Shown here one piece after another: positions 12,002-37,277 of a stretch of 38,744 bases of DNA (its first letter is position 1; the number at the start of each line of letters is the position of its first letter). The position numbers and the translations under genes are program-made. Origin of the DNA: a virus (Duplodnaviria; Heunggongvirae; Uroviricota; Caudoviricetes); IMG/VR virus record IMGVR_UViG_2703719354_000025; one strand, written 5' to 3'. The notes beneath the pieces are model-generated. The model saw only the letters and a list, made by a program, of their open reading frames with translations. It had not been told where the DNA came from and made no database searches.

Positions 12002-12997
12002 GTGACCGTGAGAGCACTACTGACCCCTGAAATTGCCCCGCGTATGGGGATCGTATTGTTCAGACCAGGTTCAGAGCTGATGCCCCTGTTTATGCAGGGG
12101 CGTGTCCTGCTGGAGCCTGAGCCGGAACGTTATTCATCTTTCGCCAGTGGTGCCGTTCCGGCGGCATCACAACCGCTGGCGGATGATCCTGCCGTTCAGG
12201 CCGTGTTCCGCAATGAGGCAGTGATCCGTCGTGCTGGTGGCGTGGAATGTCTTGAAAGCTGGTTACTTCGTGAAAAAGGCTGCCAGTGGCCTCATTCCGA
12301 CTGGCACAGCGAGAACATGACCACAATGCGACACGCTCCGGGCGCAATCCGTCTGTGCTGGCACTGCGATAACCAGCTGCGCGATCAGTTCACGGAACGG
12401 CTGGAATCAATGGCAACGGATAACTGTGCCCGCTGGGTGTTGTCTGTTGTGCGTCGGGATCTCGGTTTTGATGACAGTCACGTTGTGACAATGCCGGAAC
12501 TGTGCTGGTGGCTGATTCGTAATGATCTGGCGGATGCCTTACCGGAAAGTGCAGCCCGTAAGGCACTGAGATTACCGAAGCCTGTTGTGCCGTCTGTTAC
12601 CCGGGAAAGTGACCTTGTGCCTTCGGTTCCTGCCACCAGCATCATCCAGGATAAGGCGAAAAAGGTGCTGGCGCTGAAAGTGGATCCGGAGTCGCCGGAG
12701 TCTTTTATGTTACGCCCAAAACGTCGCCGCTGGGTTAATGAAAAGTACACGCGCTGGGTTAAGACACAGCCGTGTGCATGTTGTGGAAAGCCTGCTGATG
12801 ATCCCCACCACTTGATAGGCCACGGTCAGGGTGGGATGGGTACAAAAGCGCATGACCTCTTTGTGTTGCCTTTGTGCAGAAAGCATCACGACGAGCTGCA
12901 TGCGGATACCGTGGCATTTGAAGAGAAGTATGGCTCCCAGCTGGAGCTGATATTTCGTTTTATCGATCGTGCGCTGGCAATTGGCGTGCTGGCCTGA
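12002..12997 (+). CDS. DUF968-like phage protein with C-terminal HNH-type Zn-finger nuclease motif
   Basis: C-terminal CACCGKPADDPHHLIGHGQGGMGTKAHDLFVLPLCRKHHDELH (Cys pairs plus His); GTG start per ORF track. Confidence 0.6.
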   Translation: MTVRALLTPEIAPRMGIVLFRPGSELMPLFMQGRVLLEPEPERYSSFASGAVPAASQPLADDPAVQAVFRNEAVIRRAGGVECLESWLLREKGCQWPHSDWHSENMTTMRHAPGAIRLCWHCDNQLRDQFTERLESMATDNCARWVLSVVRRDLGFDDSHVVTMPELCWWLIRNDLADALPESAARKALRLPKPVVPSVTRESDLVPSVPATSIIQDKAKKVLALKVDPESPESFMLRPKRRRWVNEKYTRWVKTQPCACCGKPADDPHHLIGHGQGGMGTKAHDLFVLPLCRKHHDELHADTVAFEEKYGSQLELIFRFIDRALAIGVLA

Positions 12998-13014
12998 TTT
13001 TGTGGAGAAAGTTG

Positions 13015-13362
13015 ATGCGTGATATGTATGAAGTGATGGATCGTTGGGGAGCTTGGGCTGCTTCAGACAATAGCGGAGTGGACTGGCAACCGGTAGCCGC
13101 TGGCTTCAAGGGGCTTTTACCTCATGGCAAAAAGTCCCGGATTCAGTGTGATGATGATGAGGGGCTCATGATCGATGGGTGCGTAGCTAGATTAAGAAAG
13201 TACAAACCAGAAGAGTATGAATTAGTTATAGCCCATTTTGTGGTAGGGATTTCATTGCGAGCCATTGCTAAGAAGAGAAAGTGTTCGGATGGGACTATCA
13301 GGAAAGAGTTGCAAACATCGCTTGGTTTCATTGAAGGCATTGTTTGCACTCTTGCCTGTTAA
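13015..13362 (+). CDS. late-gene antiterminator Q (small QuuD-like Q family)
   Basis: ATG at 13015 with GGAG upstream (the ORF-track start at 13000 is TTG); C-terminal HTH-like ELVIAHFVVGISLRAIAKKRKCSDGTIRKEL; positioned just upstream of the late promoter/terminator and lysis genes. Confidence 0.6.
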   Translation: MRDMYEVMDRWGAWAASDNSGVDWQPVAAGFKGLLPHGKKSRIQCDDDEGLMIDGCVARLRKYKPEEYELVIAHFVVGISLRAIAKKRKCSDGTIRKELQTSLGFIEGIVCTLAC

Positions 13363-13383
13363 CTATTCTTAACTGTCTTCTAG

Positions 13384-14268
13384 TTATATTGGGCGCTTTG
13401 AATTCGATTTAAAGCGTCTTCCACTTATCCCTGAAATCCAAATGTCTTCCTCAAGAAAGTCAAGAAGGGCTTTTATTTCTTTTTTTGATGAAGGCATGAC
13501 AATTTTCTCAACACCGCCAACTATTATGGTTTGTAAGGGGAAATTGACTTTAGCAGCTTCGGATTTAAACTTTGACATATTTTGGGGTGTTAGCATCCCA
13601 GTCTGATTTATTAGTGTTACTTTATTTCTTATCACTGTATCTGCAACGGATTTTAGATCAAAACCTTGGGGAGTAGAAAATACACTAAGTTGACTAAATG
13701 CATTAAGTTCTTGGTCAGTAGCAGCAGAAAAATAGGACGACATGTCAAAAATGCTTCTTAGATTAAAGAAACTCTTAAATCGTATTGTATCATTGATAAT
13801 TATTGCAACTAGTTTATCATCAACATTAAAACCGATGCTATTAGCTTTACTAAAGGTAGTTTTGCTTGCAAAAAGCTTTCCAAAGAATGATTTTGAGGTA
13901 TCTAAGATTTGTTTTTTGTTGAAGGTTTGTAGCGCAATAATATTGGGGTTTGCTGGCGCGTCAACACCAACAAATAATGCTTTAATATAACCAATATCAA
14001 TTTGGCTGGGATCCCAGACAGGCACGGCGGTAGGCCTATTGACTGCGTCAATCAGGCGTGCAGAATCAGTAAAGTTTTGTATTTCAAAACACTCACTATG
14101 TTTTGGTGTATAACCGGCATAGAATGGTATCATATTGTTATGATGACTTTCAAAATATTGACGCTGTTGTTGGAAAATGGCCGTAACAGAAGTACTTGCT
14201 GTTGCATCAAGTTCGACTCTAACAATTCTCGTTGCAATTGTATTATCTATTACTGCAAAAAGTGCCAT
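13384..14268 (-). CDS. unknown 294-aa soluble protein, AT-rich moron gene (downstream gene of a 2-gene cassette)
   Basis: ATG at 14268 with AAGGA RBS; 5-bp gap from the upstream membrane gene; AT-rich codon usage; no motif recognised. Confidence 0.6.
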   Translation of the reverse strand: MALFAVIDNTIATRIVRVELDATASTSVTAIFQQQRQYFESHHNNMIPFYAGYTPKHSECFEIQNFTDSARLIDAVNRPTAVPVWDPSQIDIGYIKALFVGVDAPANPNIIALQTFNKKQILDTSKSFFGKLFASKTTFSKANSIGFNVDDKLVAIIINDTIRFKSFFNLRSIFDMSSYFSAATDQELNAFSQLSVFSTPQGFDLKSVADTVIRNKVTLINQTGMLTPQNMSKFKSEAAKVNFPLQTIIVGGVEKIVMPSSKKEIKALLDFLEEDIWISGISGRRFKSNSKRPI

Positions 14269-14273
14269 GGTTA

Positions 14274-14795
14274 TTATCCTTTAACATGTAGAAATGTGTA
14301 GTCTGTTAATTGAATAACTGTAAATTTGATATCTTTAATATCAGTAATGACTGATTTAGAAATCAATACAAAACCTACGCCGGTGTCATCTTCAGCTTCG
14401 TAAAATTTATAACCGATAAGTGACAATACTGGGTTAAAGTTATAGTTCTCGGAAAAGCTGATGTAAAATAACAATGACAAATAAAAGAATAACGCATATG
14501 CTTTATTTTCAGCAATAGAGTCTGTTCCTAGGAGAGGGAATAAATAGCTTAAGAAATAATTAGTTACTTCTTTGTTAGCGGGAGAAACTGAACTAATATT
14601 TTTTGTCAGAGGTTCAAGTTGTTTCTCAGCATATTGAATCAGGCCTATTGCTAATAACCAACTTGCTATGCCAACGCATAAGCTATATTGCATCAGCCAA
14701 ACCGTATCTTTTACATATCCAATAAAAAATAGAGTTGCGCAAACAGGTGCAATTGAGCTTGCTGTTAATAATAAGCGTGCTAATTTGTTCATCAT
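14274..14795 (-). CDS. unknown 173-aa integral membrane protein (about 4 TM helices), AT-rich moron gene
   Basis: ATG at 14795 with AAGGA RBS; four hydrophobic stretches (LLLTASSIAPVCATLFFIGYV, YSLCVGIASWLLAIGLIQY, NYFLSYLFPLLG, AYALFFYLSLLFYISF) followed by a soluble C-terminal tail of about 55 aa. Confidence 0.6.
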   Translation of the reverse strand: MMNKLARLLLTASSIAPVCATLFFIGYVKDTVWLMQYSLCVGIASWLLAIGLIQYAEKQLEPLTKNISSVSPANKEVTNYFLSYLFPLLGTDSIAENKAYALFFYLSLLFYISFSENYNFNPVLSLIGYKFYEAEDDTGVGFVLISKSVITDIKDIKFTVIQLTDYTFLHVKG

Positions 14796-14954
14796 GATAT
14801 CCTTTGTACTGTTTATGCATACAGCACTTTACATCATGTACTCCAAAGTATCTATCTTGTGAAGAATCTTACACTAAATACTACAGAAAAAGTTAACGCG
14901 TACGCAAAAAGTATTATATCGTGTTAAGAGTGGTTACTTCGCCACACAGCTTAA

Positions 14955-14985
14955 ACCCGCCATTGAGCGGGTTTTGTCGTTTTTG
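14955..14985 (+). terminator. tR'-like rho-independent terminator downstream of a probable Q-dependent late promoter
   Basis: CCCGC-CATTGAG-CGGG stem-loop followed by TTTTGTCGTTTTT, about 140 bp upstream of the holin start; candidate promoter elements in 14890-14925 (TTAACG ... TATATC). Confidence 0.55.
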
Positions 14986-15125
14986 GGCCTAGGGATTCGT
15001 TGGGCCTGGTCTATCCCGCAGTTATCCATTGGCTCGGCTTCTTTGACGTTTCCGCTTCTGATTTGCGGTACATGATGTTCCCTCAATTTGCACCTCCTGT
15101 ATTGCGAGGTGAGAGATAACTACAA

Positions 15126-15452
15126 ATGCCTCATAACCCAAATACCTGGCTGGAGTTGGTCCAGAGCTGGTGGCGTGGAGACACACCGCTGGGCGCAGTG
15201 ATTATGTCGATCGTTATGGCTGGCTTGCGCATTGCCTATTTTGGCGGTGGTGGTGGCTGGAAGCGAAAAACGCTCGAGATTTTGCTCTGTGGCGCTTTGA
15301 CGCTGACCTTTGCATCCGCTCTTGAGTATGTCGGATGGCCTAAATCGCTTTCTGTTGCCATTGGTGGCGGTGTTGGGCTGATCGGTGTCGATGCTATTCG
15401 TGGGGCTGCAATGCGAGTAATCGGTAACAAATTTGGTAGCACGAAGGAGTAA
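15126..15452 (+). CDS. holin
   Basis: 108-aa protein with hydrophobic segments and charged C-terminus, immediately upstream of the endolysin. Confidence 0.8.
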   Translation: MPHNPNTWLELVQSWWRGDTPLGAVIMSIVMAGLRIAYFGGGGGWKRKTLEILLCGALTLTFASALEYVGWPKSLSVAIGGGVGLIGVDAIRGAAMRVIGNKFGSTKE

Positions 15453-15455
15453 TTT

Positions 15456-15932
15456 ATGCAGGTACTAAATTCCCAGCGTAAAGCTTTCCTCGATATGGTG
15501 GCATGGTCAGAAGGAACGGATAACGGGCGACAACCGACACGTAACCACGGTTATGATGTTATTGTCGGTGGAGAACTCTTCACTGATTACTCCGATCACC
15601 CTCGCAAACTTGTCACGCTAAACCCCAAACTCAAATCAACAGCGGCCGGACGTTACCAGCTTCTTTCCCGTTGGTGGGATGCTTACCGCAAGCAGTTAGG
15701 GCTGACAGACTTCTCTCCTAAAAGCCAGGATGCTGTTGCATTACAGCAGATTAAAGAGCGTGGCGCTTTACCGATGATTGATCGCGGCGATATTCGTCAG
15801 GCTATCGATCGTTGCAGCAATATCTGGGCGTCGTTACCTGGTGCAGGTTACGGTCAGTATGAACATAAAATCGGTGACCTGATTTCCCGTTTTAAAGAGG
15901 CTGGTGGGGTGGTAAATGAAGTTGAGCTATAA
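15456..15932 (+). CDS. R: endolysin, lambda R-like lytic transglycosylase
   Basis: Translation near-identical over most of its length to lambda R as I remember it (NSQRKAFLDMVAWSEGTDNGRQPTRNHGYDVIVGGELFTDYSDHPRKLVTLNPKLKST...GALPMIDRGDIRQAIDRCSNIWASLPGAGYGQ); AAGGAG RBS. Confidence 0.95.
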   Translation: MQVLNSQRKAFLDMVAWSEGTDNGRQPTRNHGYDVIVGGELFTDYSDHPRKLVTLNPKLKSTAAGRYQLLSRWWDAYRKQLGLTDFSPKSQDAVALQQIKERGALPMIDRGDIRQAIDRCSNIWASLPGAGYGQYEHKIGDLISRFKEAGGVVNEVEL

Positions 15933-16308
15933 GCTGGCTATCTCTGCATTCTTCTTTACTGTCATCGGTTCTTTCATCTGGTCTGCCAACCACTACTACA
16001 GCAAATATCAGCACGAAAAGAAACGTGCTGATGAGGCTGTACGAAATGCTGAATCAGCAACAGCCATTACCAATAACGTCCTGCAATCACTACAAATCGT
16101 CAATACAGTTCTGGAGGCTAACCAGCATGCAAAACAGCAGATCGCACTGGAGTCACAGAGAACCCAGGAAGATATCAAAGTGGCTGTTGAGAATGATGAT
16201 TGCGCTTCACGTGCTGTGCCTGCTGCCGCTGCTGACCGGTTGCGGAAGTACGCGGACAGTTTACGTGCAGGTTCCAACGATGCCGTTACCGGCGAACCTG
16301 CTCGCTGA
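15916..16308 (+). CDS. Rz: i-spanin Rz
   Basis: 130 aa with N-terminal TM segment (LAISAFFFTVIGSFIWSA) and coiled-coil-like remainder; start overlaps the end of the endolysin. Confidence 0.8.
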   Translation: MKLSYKLAISAFFFTVIGSFIWSANHYYSKYQHEKKRADEAVRNAESATAITNNVLQSLQIVNTVLEANQHAKQQIALESQRTQEDIKVAVENDDCASRAVPAAAADRLRKYADSLRAGSNDAVTGEPAR

Positions 16309-16468
16309 AACTCCACAGCCAGTTATCCCCAATCCTCTGACTTATGGAGGTAGCCTAGATTTAAATGTCAGTTTATTGTCGGCATTATGGCAGTGCAATT
16401 TGGATAAAGCGGGGATTAGAAAGATAGAGGCGAGCCGGTCAGGTAGAAGTGAATCAGGCTCAAAGTGA
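16193..16468 (+). CDS. Rz1: o-spanin Rz1 lipoprotein, +1 frame, overlapping the Rz 3' end
   Basis: MMIALHVLCLLPLLTGCGS... signal peptide with lipobox LTGC, Pro-rich mature part; begins inside Rz and extends 160 nt beyond the Rz stop. Confidence 0.6.
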   Translation: MMIALHVLCLLPLLTGCGSTRTVYVQVPTMPLPANLLAETPQPVIPNPLTYGGSLDLNVSLLSALWQCNLDKAGIRKIEASRSGRSESGSK

Positions 16469-16618
16469 AGCGGAAAAGCTCTTTGGCATAAGGTGACGTA
16501 ATAATAATTACAGTCAACTGACTTTTGGAACGAAACATGTTTAACCTCCTTAATTGGTGTTATTCGAGTGATGAAGGCATTCTGTCCTTCTGTAGTGTCC
16601 AGTAAATCAAACAGGAAA

Positions 16619-16640
16619 CTTGTCCAACGTGTTGGACAAG
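16619..16640. promoter_or_regulatory. 22-bp palindrome upstream of the packaging module
   Basis: CTTGTCCAAC-GT-GTTGGACAAG (10-bp perfect arms) in the lysis-to-HNH intergenic region. Confidence 0.5.
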
Positions 16641-16760
16641 CCTCTCCATTAGTGAGTTGTATTGATCACAACTCTACAAAGTATTCATTACTGGGTAGAT
16701 GAAAATAGTTTCACGATGAATGGAGGAGGCTATGTCGGTGGCTTCTTCATTGGAGTACAT

Positions 16761-34165: not shown

Positions 34166-35266
34166 ATGCATCGTATAGACACGAAAACCGCGCAGAAGGA
34201 TAAGTTCGGCGCGGGTAAGAACGGTTTTACCCGTGGTAACCCCCAGACCGGCACGCCTGCCACCGATCTGGATGATGACTACTTTGACATGTTGCAGGAA
34301 GAACTCTGCAGCGTGGTGGAGGCATCCGGTGCCAGCCTGGAGAAGGGGCGGCACGATCAGCTTCTTACCGCGCTTCGTGCGCTGCTGTTAAGCCGCAAGA
34401 ATCCGTTTGGCGATATCAAATCGGATGGCACTGTGCAAACGGCTCTCGAAAACCTGGGAATGACAGACATTCTGAATGATAAACAGGATAAAAATGATAA
34501 TCTGACATCATTGTCGAGCTTAACAGGAATACCGGATGGGCTGGCATTTTTTACAGGTGCTGGAACAATGGATATGACAGCGCTGACTCAAAATGGTAGG
34601 GAAATTTTAAGTAAAAAAAACGTATCGGAAACTCTACAATATTTAACACTTGGTGATGGAACAGGAAGGCTTTTGGGGGTTCAGGTATTTGGATCATCTG
34701 GGACTTATCACAAATCACCTGGTGTAACGAAAATTATAGTGGAAGCCGTTGGCGGTGGTGGTGCCAGTGGCAATTTATCAGCAACAGCCTCAAATAACTG
34801 TGGTGTAAGTGCTGCCGGTTCCAACGGGGCATATGCTAAAGCATTTTTTTATCAGTCTATACCTGAATCCGTGCAAGTAACTATTGGAAGCGGTGGTGTA
34901 GCAGGAACAGGACCAGGAGGCTCTGGAGGTGACGGCGGGAATACAAGCTTTGGTGATTTGCTTGTATGCCCGGGAGGAAGGGGATCAACTCAAGTTCAGC
35001 AGGTACCTCCATTTTCAGGGGGAAGTGCAACAGAAGCACCAATTCCTACAGGGCAAGGGATTCTGTTCCATTCAGTTTCACGATCAAATTTATGTGGGGC
35101 ACTTGGACTTGGTGATGATCAGGCGATTGGCGTTGAAAGTATAACCACTACTATGCTTGGGACATACGGTATTGGCGGGACAGGTAAATACAATAAGGCG
35201 TCATCAGGCCCAGCGACAGGAAATAATGGAAATCAGGGATATATTCTTGTGTGGGAGTATCAGTAA
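34166..35266 (+). CDS. tail fiber protein with divergent AT-rich, Gly-rich C-terminal receptor-binding region
   Basis: Conserved fiber-type N-terminus ([46 protein letters not shown]...); base composition shifts to AT-rich at about 34500; C-terminal Gly-rich stretches ([15 protein letters not shown]). Confidence 0.8.
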
Positions 35267-35445
35267 TGAGCGATATTTATGCAGTCGTACAAAATGGTGT
35301 CGTTACAAATCTTGTTGTATGGGATGGTAAGTCAGAGTTTAAGCCAGAAAAAGCGGATATAGTTAAATGTGTTGGAGATGTTGGTATTGGCTGGTCATAT
35401 GACGGTAAAAAATTCATCAAGCCTGAAGATAAAACCGCGCAATAG
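35266..35445 (+). CDS. small protein downstream of the tail fiber (59 aa)
   Basis: ATG at 35266 overlaps the fiber stop (TAATG); too short for a typical tail fiber assembly protein. Confidence 0.4.
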   Translation: MSDIYAVVQNGVVTNLVVWDGKSEFKPEKADIVKCVGDVGIGWSYDGKKFIKPEDKTAQ

Positions 35446-35456
35446 CGCGGTTTTAT

Positions 35457-36476
35457 TTATTTTACTGCTAAAATTCGTTTTCTTAGCATCAGCTCTAAAG
35501 GCTCCTCAACTAATTTATAAAGTATGATTGAGACTATGGTTATTATAACAAGGAGCGCTATTAAATAGAGTGGTCCGGGGTTATGTCCAAAGATTTTAAA
35601 GCAAAATAATATAATGGGTTGATGAATTAAATAAAAAATAAATGATGATTTCCCTAATAGCTCTAGGGTTTTTGAACTGAGGATAGTATGAATGACTCCA
35701 TTTCTTAGATAGATGCATGAAGTAAAGAATATTACCATGGGGAGTAAATAATATAACGAATAACGTAGACTATTATTTATGTTGTTGCTATAATATATAG
35801 CTATTAGCAGAGGTAATAGTGAAATTAAAAACAAAAGGCTGTCGACTGTCTGCTGTCGGCTGTTTTTCCAGCAAGCGTAAATAATCATGCCGCAAATAAA
35901 TTCTACCAAGCGGCTTACTGGGAATATATAATATAACCAGTGATTAAGTTCTTCTGTTTGTATAATTTTTAAAAAATATATAGTTAATAGTAGAGTTATA
36001 ATTGATATTGCAGTGATTACTTTCTTTGTAATTGATGTATAAATCAACGGAATAAACATTAAATAAAAAAACAGCTCATCAGACAAAGACCATGATACAC
36101 CATTTAATGAGAAGTAGTAATCCTCCTTTGGTATCCAACTTTGCATTAATAAAATATTTGTTAAGGTTTTTGAAAAATCAAAGTTCTTTAAGTGAATGGT
36201 TAGTAAAATAAATGGCATGGCTAATAATAGATGCATTGGAACAATTCTTGCCAATCTTAAAAGAATAAACTGTCTTTTACTTGTTACTTCATTTTTTAGC
36301 TTGTCTTCATATGAATATGAAAGAATGAAGCCAGATAAAATAAAGAAAAAGGAAACGCCAATAAATCCCTGGGAAAACATTTCTTTTACAAAAACACCAA
36401 AATAGTCTGTATTTAAATGGCATAAATAAACCATTAATGCAGCTATAAATCTGAGTCCTGTTAAGTGGCGAAGCAT
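35457..36476 (-). CDS. acyltransferase family 3 membrane protein (O-antigen/LPS acetyltransferase-like)
   Basis: Polytopic membrane protein with the acyltransferase-3 N-terminal pattern (RHLTGLRFIAALMVYLCHL...); start set at the ATG at 36476 with GAGG RBS (the ORF-track start at 36506 is TTG). Very AT-rich. Confidence 0.8.
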   Translation of the reverse strand: MLRHLTGLRFIAALMVYLCHLNTDYFGVFVKEMFSQGFIGVSFFFILSGFILSYSYEDKLKNEVTSKRQFILLRLARIVPMHLLLAMPFILLTIHLKNFDFSKTLTNILLMQSWIPKEDYYFSLNGVSWSLSDELFFYLMFIPLIYTSITKKVITAISIITLLLTIYFLKIIQTEELNHWLYYIFPVSRLVEFICGMIIYACWKNSRQQTVDSLLFLISLLPLLIAIYYSNNINNSLRYSLYYLLPMVIFFTSCIYLRNGVIHTILSSKTLELLGKSSFIFYLIHQPIILFCFKIFGHNPGPLYLIALLVIITIVSIILYKLVEEPLELMLRKRILAVK

Positions 36477-37212
36477 CAATAACCTCTTGTTATGAAGATA
36501 AAGCAATTCAAAAGAGGCATTTTATGACTGTAGGGGATTGGTGTCTATATGAATGAGTAATCTGGTTTTTAAAATCTTCTTTAATTACAAAATAAACCTT
36601 TCTTAGGCTATAGATTTGTGGCTGTAACACTGTGTGTCCACGACATTGAGACATCCTTCCGCTTTGCTATAGATGTGGAATTCAGGATCAAGCGATATCG
36701 GACTCATCCTCAGCACCACCCGGTTAATCTGGATAACGGGAGAAGGGAAGCGCTGCCAGAAGATGATGATGGTTACAGTTCTGCACTGGCTATTCTGCAC
36801 TGGCTATATTCGTGGTGATCACTTACATAATTAATGACGCCAGGAATACGGAGTTTGATGATTGCCTGGTGATGTGAGAAAAAACTCATACACACAAAGC
36901 TTTGAACTGGATTGCAAGGCTTTGTGCTATTCGATAGCACGAGTTTGAATGAAAATCAGCCGTTATCGATTTTACGTATTTTTGTATGAGAGGATTTTTA
37001 CCTCCTCCCACCGATCCTCCATAACTTTACGACACTGTCTCTAGGACTGCTATGTGCCAAGAGCGGAATTTTCTAATATTATGCTGCATTCGTTTAAGGG
37101 GAGCAGATCAGCTAACGACTCCTACGTCCTGGGGAAAGGTCACATATGCTAAACAGCAGCTCAGCAAAGAGAAGAGCGAATTTGGTAACGGGAAACCGTT
37201 ATGATATGAATA

Positions 37213-37240
37213 AGGCTCCCAATGGGAGCCTTATTTTTTG
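37213..37240 (+). terminator. rho-independent terminator hairpin
   Basis: AAGGCTCCC-AATG-GGAGCCTT followed by ATTTTTTGA on the plus strand; lies about 40 bp beyond the stop of the minus-strand small gene but has no T-tract in that orientation. Confidence 0.6.
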
Positions 37241-37277
37241 ATAGGGATGATGAATATTATCCGAGGCTTACTGGCTT

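Follow-up and report, generated by a model that had tools for sequence, protein, structure and literature searches.

A phage-borne moron of the acyltransferase-3 (AT3) family beside a receptor-binding gene is an arrangement of a well-known kind. In phage Sf6 the order is tailspike, terminator, oac and intS, in phage SfII OacD is a GlcNAc (N-acetylglucosamine) 6-O-acetyltransferase (PMC9558356), and in phage phiV10 the Oac protein acetylates the O157 antigen and blocks infection by phiV10 (PMC9558356, PMC11854483). Here we analysed the 38,744-nt IMG/VR virus record IMGVR_UViG_2703719354_000025 (the window, i.e. the whole stretch of DNA), and in it the region in which a tail fiber gene, a small open reading frame (ORF) and a convergent AT3 gene follow one another (Table 1). 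In this region an SfV/SfII-type E. coli prophage has its exchangeable end for host recognition and lysogenic conversion. Its AT3 is a new member of the known kind and probably constitutes an O-acetyltransferase of the O128 O-antigen that is linked to an O128-specific fiber tip, as suggested by sequence comparisons and by the exclusive association of the gene with serogroup O128. This association is new, as are the origin of the fiber swap at an invertase site and a slot in which AT3 and a GDSL esterase gene are allelic.

An AT3-only protein in the slot of known O-antigen-modifying genes

The closest functional precedent is Oac from Sf6. Both enzymes are AT3-only proteins of similar length (339 aa here vs. 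333 aa) that contain the R/K-X10-H, FFxxSG, RXXR-IxP and NGxxW[ST] motifs, and both genes are convergent to the receptor-binding gene, lie behind a terminator, have their own promoter (putative in the window) and are located at the integrase/att end. Nevertheless, the identity is 28%, confined to the N-terminal 155 aa, and Oac has SYGxY/FPVQQ where SFIFY..HQP is found here. Moreover, Sf6 is a P22-like podovirus with an endorhamnosidase tailspike, whereas the window contains a myovirus with a fiber, and Oac acts on the rhamnose backbone of S. flexneri (2-O-acetyl), whereas the candidate acceptor here is the O128 antigen. SfII shares baseplate genes of ~97% identity and thrW-type integration, and its OacD (SfII_25, a reviewed entry) is encoded in the same slot and orientation, i.e. 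in the order fiber, tfa accessory gene, terminator, convergent AT3. Between the two proteins, however, nothing more than family-level similarity was seen (BLASTP E 0.16; hhalign probability 2.7%), and SfII also keeps gtrABC and has another kind of fiber tip with a Caudo_TAP chaperone. In SfV (fiber-tfa-terminator-gtrV/B/A-attP-int) the gtr cluster fills the same interval on a near-identical backbone, but modification there is a three-gene glucosylation as opposed to the single acyltransferase here. The phiV10-like phages are likewise temperate E. coli phages in which AT3 adjoins the receptor-binding protein, but they are podoviruses with a same-strand arrangement and belong to another serogroup; the AT3 of the window did not match phiV10 at E <= 1e-3. 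The original prediction is supported overall, and the slot of AT3 is in position and orientation that of Sf6 oac, SfII oacD and SfV gtrABC. The window has the backbone and the thrW/proA integration of the serotype-converting SfV/SfII group and also its layout, in which a convergent modifying gene sits behind a terminator in the interval that fiber genes and attR enclose, as is the case for SfV gtrV/B/A and SfII_25. Orthology to Oac or OacD was rejected (hhalign probability 56% for Oac, no similarity for OacD), and in a tblastn search against 50,697 phage records AT3 hit neither Sf6 Oac nor SfII OacD.

Membership in the AT3 family was claimed correctly, as residues 15-330 of the protein cover positions 4-325 of the 326 in PF01757 (E 2.2e-30) and the PHROG matches are phrog_3333 'O-acetyltransferase' (E 7.5e-51) and 'O-antigen acetylase' (E 3e-26). 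The protein has an AT3-only architecture without a second Pfam domain and, in particular, without an SGNH domain, so it is not of the OatA type, i.e. the peptidoglycan acyltransferases to which, according to the prediction, a closest relationship would have spoken against it; no such relationship was observed. A crude Kyte-Doolittle scan gives ~8-10 hydrophobic segments, the family norm being ~10 transmembrane helices. The motifs R9-X10-H20, G37xxGV, F44FILSG49, R74xxR77-IxP (R74LAR77) and N125GxSWS are invariant in 18 homologues. R9-X10-H20, FFILSG, R74xxR77-IxP and NGxSWS have counterparts among the essential residues of OafA and Oac (PMC7448272, PMC3467182), and R/K-X10-H in TMH1 with its invariant His, FFxxSG, and RXXR in loop 2-3 are essential in OafA, OafB and Oac. 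The gene is under purifying selection and maintained, with a ratio of nonsynonymous to synonymous substitution rates (dN/dS) of 0.14 at dS 0.70 relative to the Citrobacter orthologue; the ORF is intact and 99.9-100% identical across the 7 complete genomes that carry it.

Relatives of AT3 are sparse. An identical protein is widespread in E. coli (it is listed in 1,074 index blocks of an assembly collection), a Citrobacter clade has 83% identity and all others have <= 45%. The nearest phage homologue, TL-2011b gp49 (35%), adjoins a pectate-lyase-like tailspike candidate. Three of the six distant relatives with a readable context, from Morganella (38%), Vibrio (35%) and a metagenome contig (41%), lie in O-antigen-type polysaccharide clusters with Wzx, Wzy and glycosyltransferases, and two distant relatives lie outside polysaccharide loci. 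NCBIfam equivalogs and PADLOC models gave no match to AT3, a search by sequence returned no solved structure, and a literature search returned no paper describing the gene.

The gene has the deviant composition (GC 0.30 vs. 0.55), the cassette edges and the terminator of a moron, the promoter-like site contributing little. The hairpin between the convergent genes has a 14-bp stem and begins where the cargo cassette has its left edge (35424/35425). Dam/OxyR-type phase variation occurs in gtr and oafB. It is not supported for AT3, as the 424 nt upstream contain two scattered GATC sites (36686 and 36817), which corresponds to about the average density of the window, and no paired clusters.

The fiber junction and the cargo slot

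In 300-nt windows the GC content drops from 0.53-0.60 ahead of 34350 to 0.42-0.49 at ~34400, in the C-terminal part of the fiber gene, and to 0.27-0.33 in AT3. The strongest likelihood change-point is located at 34459 (log-likelihood ratio 138; GC 0.578 vs. 0.401) and lesser ones at 35451 and 36618, so that the abrupt shift to AT-rich sequence within the fiber gene that had been described is real, and the coordinates and features given for fiber, small ORF and convergent AT3 are all correct. The AT3 coding sequence (GC 0.298) is essentially at the level of the lowest 1020-nt window of the 38.7 kb (minimum 0.294; z = -3.2). The GC content at third codon positions (GC3) is 0.64 in the N-terminal part of the fiber and 0.62 in gp47/gp48, but 0.283 in the fiber C-terminus, 0.30 in the small ORF and 0.282 in AT3. 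As GC3 falls from 0.64 to ~0.28, the shift is no amino-acid artefact, and as GC3 is equal in all three genes they share one low-GC signature, the second GC step reflecting Gly-rich vs. membrane-protein composition. Separate donors for the fiber C-terminus and AT3, which the two-step drop might suggest, were thus rejected.

The compositional break coincides to one base with the end of homology to the S. flexneri serotype-converting phages SfI, SfII, SfIV and SfV, whose late and baseplate genes have 96.5-96.7% nucleotide identity to the window; their match stops at 34455-34458 and none is found beyond it in the fiber. The GC profile and fiber alignment proposed as checks thus map the recombination breakpoint to 34455-34459. 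The fiber indeed combines a conserved N-terminus with a divergent, Gly-rich C-terminus (19% vs. 10% Gly). At its other end the module extends further than had been assumed: not 36476, but ~36618-36880 is reached by the AT-rich cassette and 38343 by the stretch that SfV does not match. Homology to SfV and SfII is back at 38344, where the counterpart is gtrA-int intergenic sequence (95-96% identity over 38344-38470). With SfV homology interrupted from 34459 until its return at 38344, the block 34459-38343 replaces the fiber tip, tfa and gtrV-gtrB-gtrA.

The N-terminal part of the fiber aligns with SfV, LHM10-1 and the related locus L028. The C-terminal part matches Gly_rich_2 (PF21722) above the gathering score (E 1.4e-7). 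In an AlphaFold (AF2) model of medium confidence (pLDDT 71.5) the fiber resembles the cyanophage Pam3 fiber (7ypx, E 9e-9), the Bxb1 tail tip (9d93) and the TG (TNF-like/polyglycine) domain of LTK/ALK, and there are 234 matches at E <= 1e-3 among predicted viral models. The C-terminus is thus predicted to adopt a widespread receptor-binding fold and carries no enzyme signature. The same Gly-rich C-terminus occurs behind a large variety of N-termini, in proteins of 366, 382, 398, 413 and 415 aa, among others. In RefSeq/PGAP (NZ_CP019560.1) a truncated 'stfP' pseudogene covers just the first ~99 codons, and what follows has no annotation; as the reading frame stays open over 366 aa and other pipelines treat it as a single protein, this call seems to be an artefact that stems from the mosaic nature of the fiber.

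The junction between constant and variable fiber parts carries the remnant of a crossover site of the Gin/Pin (Din) family, TCTCGAAAACC-TG-GGAATGACAGA, with an intact left half, an altered core (TG for TT) and a degenerate right half; the half-site resembles hix/gix. The aligned fibers all diverge within 2-3 nt past ...TCTCGAAAACCT (longer flank ...GGCTCTCGAAAACCT), and the junction in SfV is a full dyad, TCTCGAAAACC TT GGTTTGGGAGA. In relatives with the same Gly-rich tip, namely L028 on the same Mu-type backbone and L019 and L022 on another one, the tip is followed by an inverted Caudo_TAP gene and a resolvase gene, in one case also by an inverted Gp53-like tip. L028 and L019 have an inverted partner site with a GGTTTGGGAGA half-site just upstream of the resolvase gene. 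As Mu G and e14 P have this layout in their invertible segments, the swap point is a crossover site of a Din invertase. The window shares with Mu G, P1 C and e14 P (Gin, Cin, Pin) the crossover-type site at the constant/variable fiber junction, but the AT3 cassette sits where the second arm and the invertase gene would be.

An active invertible segment was rejected for the window. Unlike L028 and L019, which have two inverted sites and an adjacent serine invertase gene, it has a single site with an intact left half and no resolvase gene; a search of the window for an inverted partner and a resolvase gene, including tblastn, gave nothing credible, and one half-site with 2 mismatches at 36165, inside the AT3 coding sequence, was judged a chance match in AT-rich DNA. 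Given the TG core, the degenerate right half and the missing partner and invertase, the fiber is fixed in one state. The idea that the window and SfV are two states of one switch was also rejected, as the alternative arm of L028 is not homologous to the C-terminus of SfV orf21 and the Caudo_TAP proteins compared are only 22% identical; what remains of it is the exchange of tips at the junction site. In ETEC (enterotoxigenic E. coli) 300709 (L045:8481-9697) the AT3 module abuts fragments of an integrase gene and of a tail-fiber assembly gene, with a gp53-like tip and an intact pinE invertase gene also adjoining; the module looks as if it had been inserted into, or had recombined with, a resident invertible-fiber prophage.

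Beyond the fiber, comparisons with empty sites and alternative cargos define a cargo slot at 35425-36880, whose left edge is inside the last codons of the small ORF. Beside fibers of 95-97% identity the slot contains either a GDSL esterase gene or nothing. In WS4437A-1 (L006:5298-5894) an intact 198-aa GDSL/SGNH esterase is encoded (Lipase_GDSL_2, E 2e-15; phrog_14008; GC 0.33), in AW1.7 (L004:5334-5929) the same gene is split, and in FDAARGOS_1059 no gene is annotated in the slot, a DinI-like gene and the integrase gene coming next. In the GDSL protein the GDS motif is intact and, by eye, there is no signal peptide; it matched no NCBIfam equivalog or PADLOC model. Its gene has the orientation of the tail genes, and the product may belong to the virion or to the late proteins instead of serving lysogenic conversion. 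The AT3 cassette also holds the remnant of an S24/LexA-type repressor gene, which travels with it and is kept in the Citrobacter block. A perfect 14-nt tandem duplication (TTCTGCACTGGCTA x2) at 36779-36806 is located inside this remnant and probably causes its frameshift. The segment that ends the slot has a 76%-identical copy at 38341-38389 (direct repeat D1), where SfV/SfII homology resumes.

The small ORF is translationally coupled to the fiber gene and trails every Gly_rich_2 fiber of this family examined here, in E. coli and Citrobacter and whether AT3 is present or absent; where the segment is invertible, it stands in for the U/Tfa gene. Its dN/dS is 0.25. Neither its family, phrog_14370, which carries no assigned function, nor homologue retrieval, which gave close homologues only, nor NCBIfam equivalogs and PADLOC defence models, to which it had no match, indicates a role, and from its position it may assist the fiber tip, in assembly or as an accessory factor. 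The AT3 cassette includes the last ~7 codons of the small ORF, the end ...PEDKTAQ being found only in AT3-bearing copies of both genera, whereas others end in ...PSLKQDD....

Fiber tip, small ORF and AT3 move, according to these comparisons, as a block across three baseplate backbones in E. coli and Citrobacter. The block from ~34391-34526 to 36937 is found with 99% identity on another baseplate backbone (DUF2612/Phage_Wedge1 type), and in Citrobacter, on a third backbone, the trio is colinear with 76% nucleotide identity (aa identity 65-76% for the fiber C-terminus, 62% for the small ORF and 83% for AT3). The linkage of AT3 to the 59-aa ORF and the fiber locus was observed in all 7 complete-genome copies and in 10/10 sampled contexts on two backbones, the fiber gene being uncalled in some of the assemblies behind these counts. 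At the same time, the distal tip (34800-35246) is only 57-73% identical in LHM10-1 and CP52E, while its surroundings including AT3 are 97-100% identical, i.e. the tip was swapped beside an AT3 gene of 99.9% identity. The locus is thus built of nested exchange units, i.e. the whole block, the cargo slot and the distal tip. Of the proposal that receptor-binding domain and enzyme were acquired together, the common origin is supported by the shared GC3 and by the co-divergence between E. coli and Citrobacter, but not a strict unity, since tip and cargo are also swapped separately.

Serogroup O128 and the candidate acceptor

O128 is a classical serogroup of diarrhoeagenic E. coli, i.e. ETEC, enteropathogenic (EPEC) and Shiga toxin-producing E. 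coli (STEC), and serotyping, vaccine antigens and phage susceptibility rest on the fine structure of the O-antigen. We assigned serogroups via the annotated O-antigen cluster of strain KSC1031, which is of the O128 type, and a search for the O128 wzy gene in 5,426 complete E. coli genomes, as carrier-strain serotypes were not found in the literature. AT3 is present in 7 of these genomes, the fiber tip in 12 and O128 wzy in 23, and the latter include 7/7 AT3 carriers and all three records with GDSL cargo; both carriers of the tip with an empty slot are outside the wzy set, one of them being O111:H2. The AT3 carriers do not represent a single clone with a single prophage, as they fall in both wzy allele groups and in at least five prophage or integration contexts: a Mu-type backbone at thrW (KSC1031), a Mu-type backbone with the other tip allele at bioA-ybhB (LHM10-1, CP52E), two different DUF2612-type backbones at argW-intS (EH08-18-36, TW10590), a DUF2612-type backbone whose integrase is P4-like (E41) and, in 300709, a degraded prophage at pphA-rsmF that adjoins a pinE remnant. 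The hypergeometric P is ~9e-18 for AT3 and 2e-21 for the tip (one duplicate strain removed), but the genomes are not phylogenetically independent, so P overstates the evidence, which weakens its weight for the O128 reading. The exclusivity for O128, a correlation, is nevertheless the strongest evidence that the tip recognises, and the cargo acts on, the O128 antigen.

O128 strains are reported to differ in O-acetylation, with one vs. two O-acetyl groups matching serological differences, and the 2026 preprint describing this mentions neither genes nor phages as the cause (bioRxiv 10.64898/2026.03.20.713141). Strain GTC 14291 has two such groups and GTC 13255 one. The O128 cluster of KSC1031 (L044:11975-12532) encodes a CatB-related, hexapeptide-type O-acetyltransferase. 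The O128 antigen may therefore receive one acetyl group from the cluster enzyme and another one from the prophage AT3. In the most likely mechanism a lysogen would express AT3 from its own putative promoter, and AT3, an inner-membrane enzyme, would draw acetyl groups from cytoplasmic acetyl-CoA through the AT3 pore, with its R-X10-H and RXXR motifs, and attach them to an O128 O-antigen sugar on the periplasmic side. The altered O128 epitope would present an altered surface to the fiber tip of this phage family, for which the O128 antigen would be the receptor, and the lysogen would adsorb the phage and its relatives less well, i.e. superinfection would be excluded.

Several observations weigh against AT3 being an O128 O-acetyltransferase. 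Its similarity to the characterised Oac is weak and to OacD there is none; the promoter scan gave fewer sites than shuffled sequences, so that the AT3 promoter match is no better than chance; and the CatB-type enzyme of the cluster itself could account for the acetylation of O128. AT3-only proteins have many acceptors, which are not readable from the sequence (PMC9558356), and the Gly-rich fold is common to fibers with uncharacterised, possibly non-glycan receptors. In addition, one AT3 allele is found beside two tip alleles that are ~30-40% apart in nucleotides, and a fiber of 97.9% identity exists without cargo in non-O128 (O111:H2) strains, so the specificities of enzyme and tip are not strictly coupled. 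The O128 association could also stem from the host range of the fiber alone, with AT3 as passenger cargo.

This last possibility, in which the O128 restriction is due to the tip and AT3 serves a host benefit such as antigenic variation or resistance to serum or grazing, or merely hitchhikes, without a tie to the receptor and without self-exclusion, is in our view unlikely. It would explain why AT3, a GDSL esterase gene or nothing may be found between identical flanks, as in a generic cargo hotspot, why a tip allele was swapped beside an identical AT3, and why a cargo-less fiber occurs in O111 strains; the Kiwa defence moron in the same prophage (Table 1) further illustrates that protective cargo need not be linked to a receptor. 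However, the three genes have diverged in step between E. coli and Citrobacter and keep one junction within the small ORF, AT3 and the GDSL esterase as alternative cargos are both enzymes that handle acetyl groups, and the Oac proteins of Sf6 and phiV10 are precedents that block their own phage (PMC9558356, PMC11854483).

Acylation of another envelope glycan, i.e. enterobacterial common antigen, the lipopolysaccharide core, colanic acid or capsule, periplasmic glucans or peptidoglycan, would fit the wide and unreadable acceptor range of AT3-only proteins, the two distant relatives outside polysaccharide loci and the lack of a close characterised relative, identity falling from 83% to <= 45%. 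WecH, for instance, acts on enterobacterial common antigen and OpgC on periplasmic glucans. However, an acceptor that all E. coli share would not be expected to give exclusivity for one serogroup over at least five contexts, gtr, oac and oacD use this slot, three relatives lie in O-antigen-type clusters, and neither an NCBIfam equivalog match nor an OatA-like SGNH domain was found, which makes such an acceptor quite unlikely. Finally, AT3 adjoins S24 pseudogene debris with a 14-nt duplication and RefSeq regards the fiber as a truncated stfP pseudogene, as one might expect if AT3 were a decaying, non-functional remnant and the composition shift an amino-acid bias rather than a sign of foreign origin. 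Given that the ORF is intact and almost invariant in 7/7 complete genomes, that dN/dS is 0.14, that all catalytic motifs are kept, that the fiber ORF is open over its full length and that the fall in GC3 exceeds any amino-acid bias, we regard this as highly improbable.

If AT3 does act on the O128 antigen, we may speculate further, albeit with considerable doubt, that the tip reads the acetylation of O128 and that the slot carries either a 'writer' (AT3) or an 'eraser' (the GDSL/SGNH esterase of WS4437A-1 and, in split form, AW1.7). Either cargo would then shift the O128 antigen from the singly acetylated state that is set by the CatB-type enzyme. The phage family would in that case be the genetic cause of the O-acetyl and serological heterogeneity of O128, possibly including the O128ab/ac factors, and in this lineage a Pin-type switch of host range would have given way, at one and the same site, to a receptor-modifying gene. 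Irrespective of this scheme, AT3, carried by 7 of the 23 complete O128 genomes and by none of the complete genomes of other serogroups, is a concrete candidate for the differences in O128 acetylation; should the O128 assignment fail, it would be one more uncharacterised moron. The locus also displays how host-range ends are built from nested parts, i.e. invertase-site joint, tip and cargo slot, and it offers an uncharacterised clade of AT3-only proteins, together with AT3 and SGNH genes that are natural alleles, for the question of how AT3-only enzymes function without an SGNH partner.

The prophage frame and neighbouring features

The SfV/SfII-type prophage is complete within the window, has a Mu-like contractile tail and is integrated at thrW. 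This tRNA-Thr gene, which adjoins proA, is inside the window at 1341-1470, holds attL and has the integrase gene beside it. The 190-aa and 57-aa ORFs between the AT3 cassette and attR often travel together with AT3, on both phage backbones.

Table 1. Features of the fiber-AT3 region and of the prophage around it (window positions)
Feature	Position	Strand	Remarks
KwaB (Kiwa defence)	13384-14268	-	PADLOC E 2e-150
KwaA (Kiwa defence)	14274-14795	-	PADLOC E 2e-83
Tail fiber ORF	34166-35266	+	366 aa, intact
Fiber constant N-terminal part	34166..34458	+	aa 1-98; StfP/SfV orf21 type; attaches to Mu-type baseplate
Remnant Gin/Pin (Din)-family crossover site	34444..34469	+	constant/variable junction
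Fiber variable Gly-rich receptor-binding part	34459..35266	+	aa 99-366; Pfam Gly_rich_2
Distal fiber tip sub-module	34800-35246	+	aa 212-361; separately exchangeable; divergent tract in LHM10-1
Small ORF	35266-35445	+	59 aa; start overlaps fiber stop as TAATG; phrog_14370 E 8e-28
Hairpin between small ORF and AT3	35427..35458	.	likely bidirectional terminator; terminator scan
AT3-only membrane acyltransferase	35457..36476	-	339 aa; WP_000943925.1; PF01757
AT3 expression signals (putative)	36477..36560	-	AAGAGG Shine-Dalgarno 6 nt before ATG; sigma-70-like TAGACA-17-TAAAAT, 36547..36519
S24/LexA-type repressor C-terminus, pseudogene remnant	36666..36877	+	RefSeq annotation of identical KSC1031 sequence
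End-of-slot segment, right cargo boundary	36875..36937	.	shared with L003, L004 and L006 just before integrase/prophage end
57-aa ORF	37257-37430	-	between AT3 cassette and attR
190-aa ORF	37521..38093	-	phrog_4350; no Pfam, NCBIfam or PADLOC match
attR	38466..38529	+	64-nt repeat of thrW 3' part; prophage end; BLAST of thrW region vs. window

The KSC1031 prophage is 99.9% identical to the window over the fiber-AT3 region and otherwise near-identical, the chief difference being the stretch 12994-16751. The latter includes the Kiwa pair, which is complete (13384-14795), forms a second AT-rich island (GC 0.36-0.38) and is flanked by the genes of antiterminator Q (13000-13362) and a holin (15126-15452). 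The window departs from KSC1031 after 38612, so that its source strain differs from KSC1031 at this flank, and, past attR, contains the start of an IS3-family transposase orfA (~38640-38744, MTKNTRFSPEVRQRAV...).

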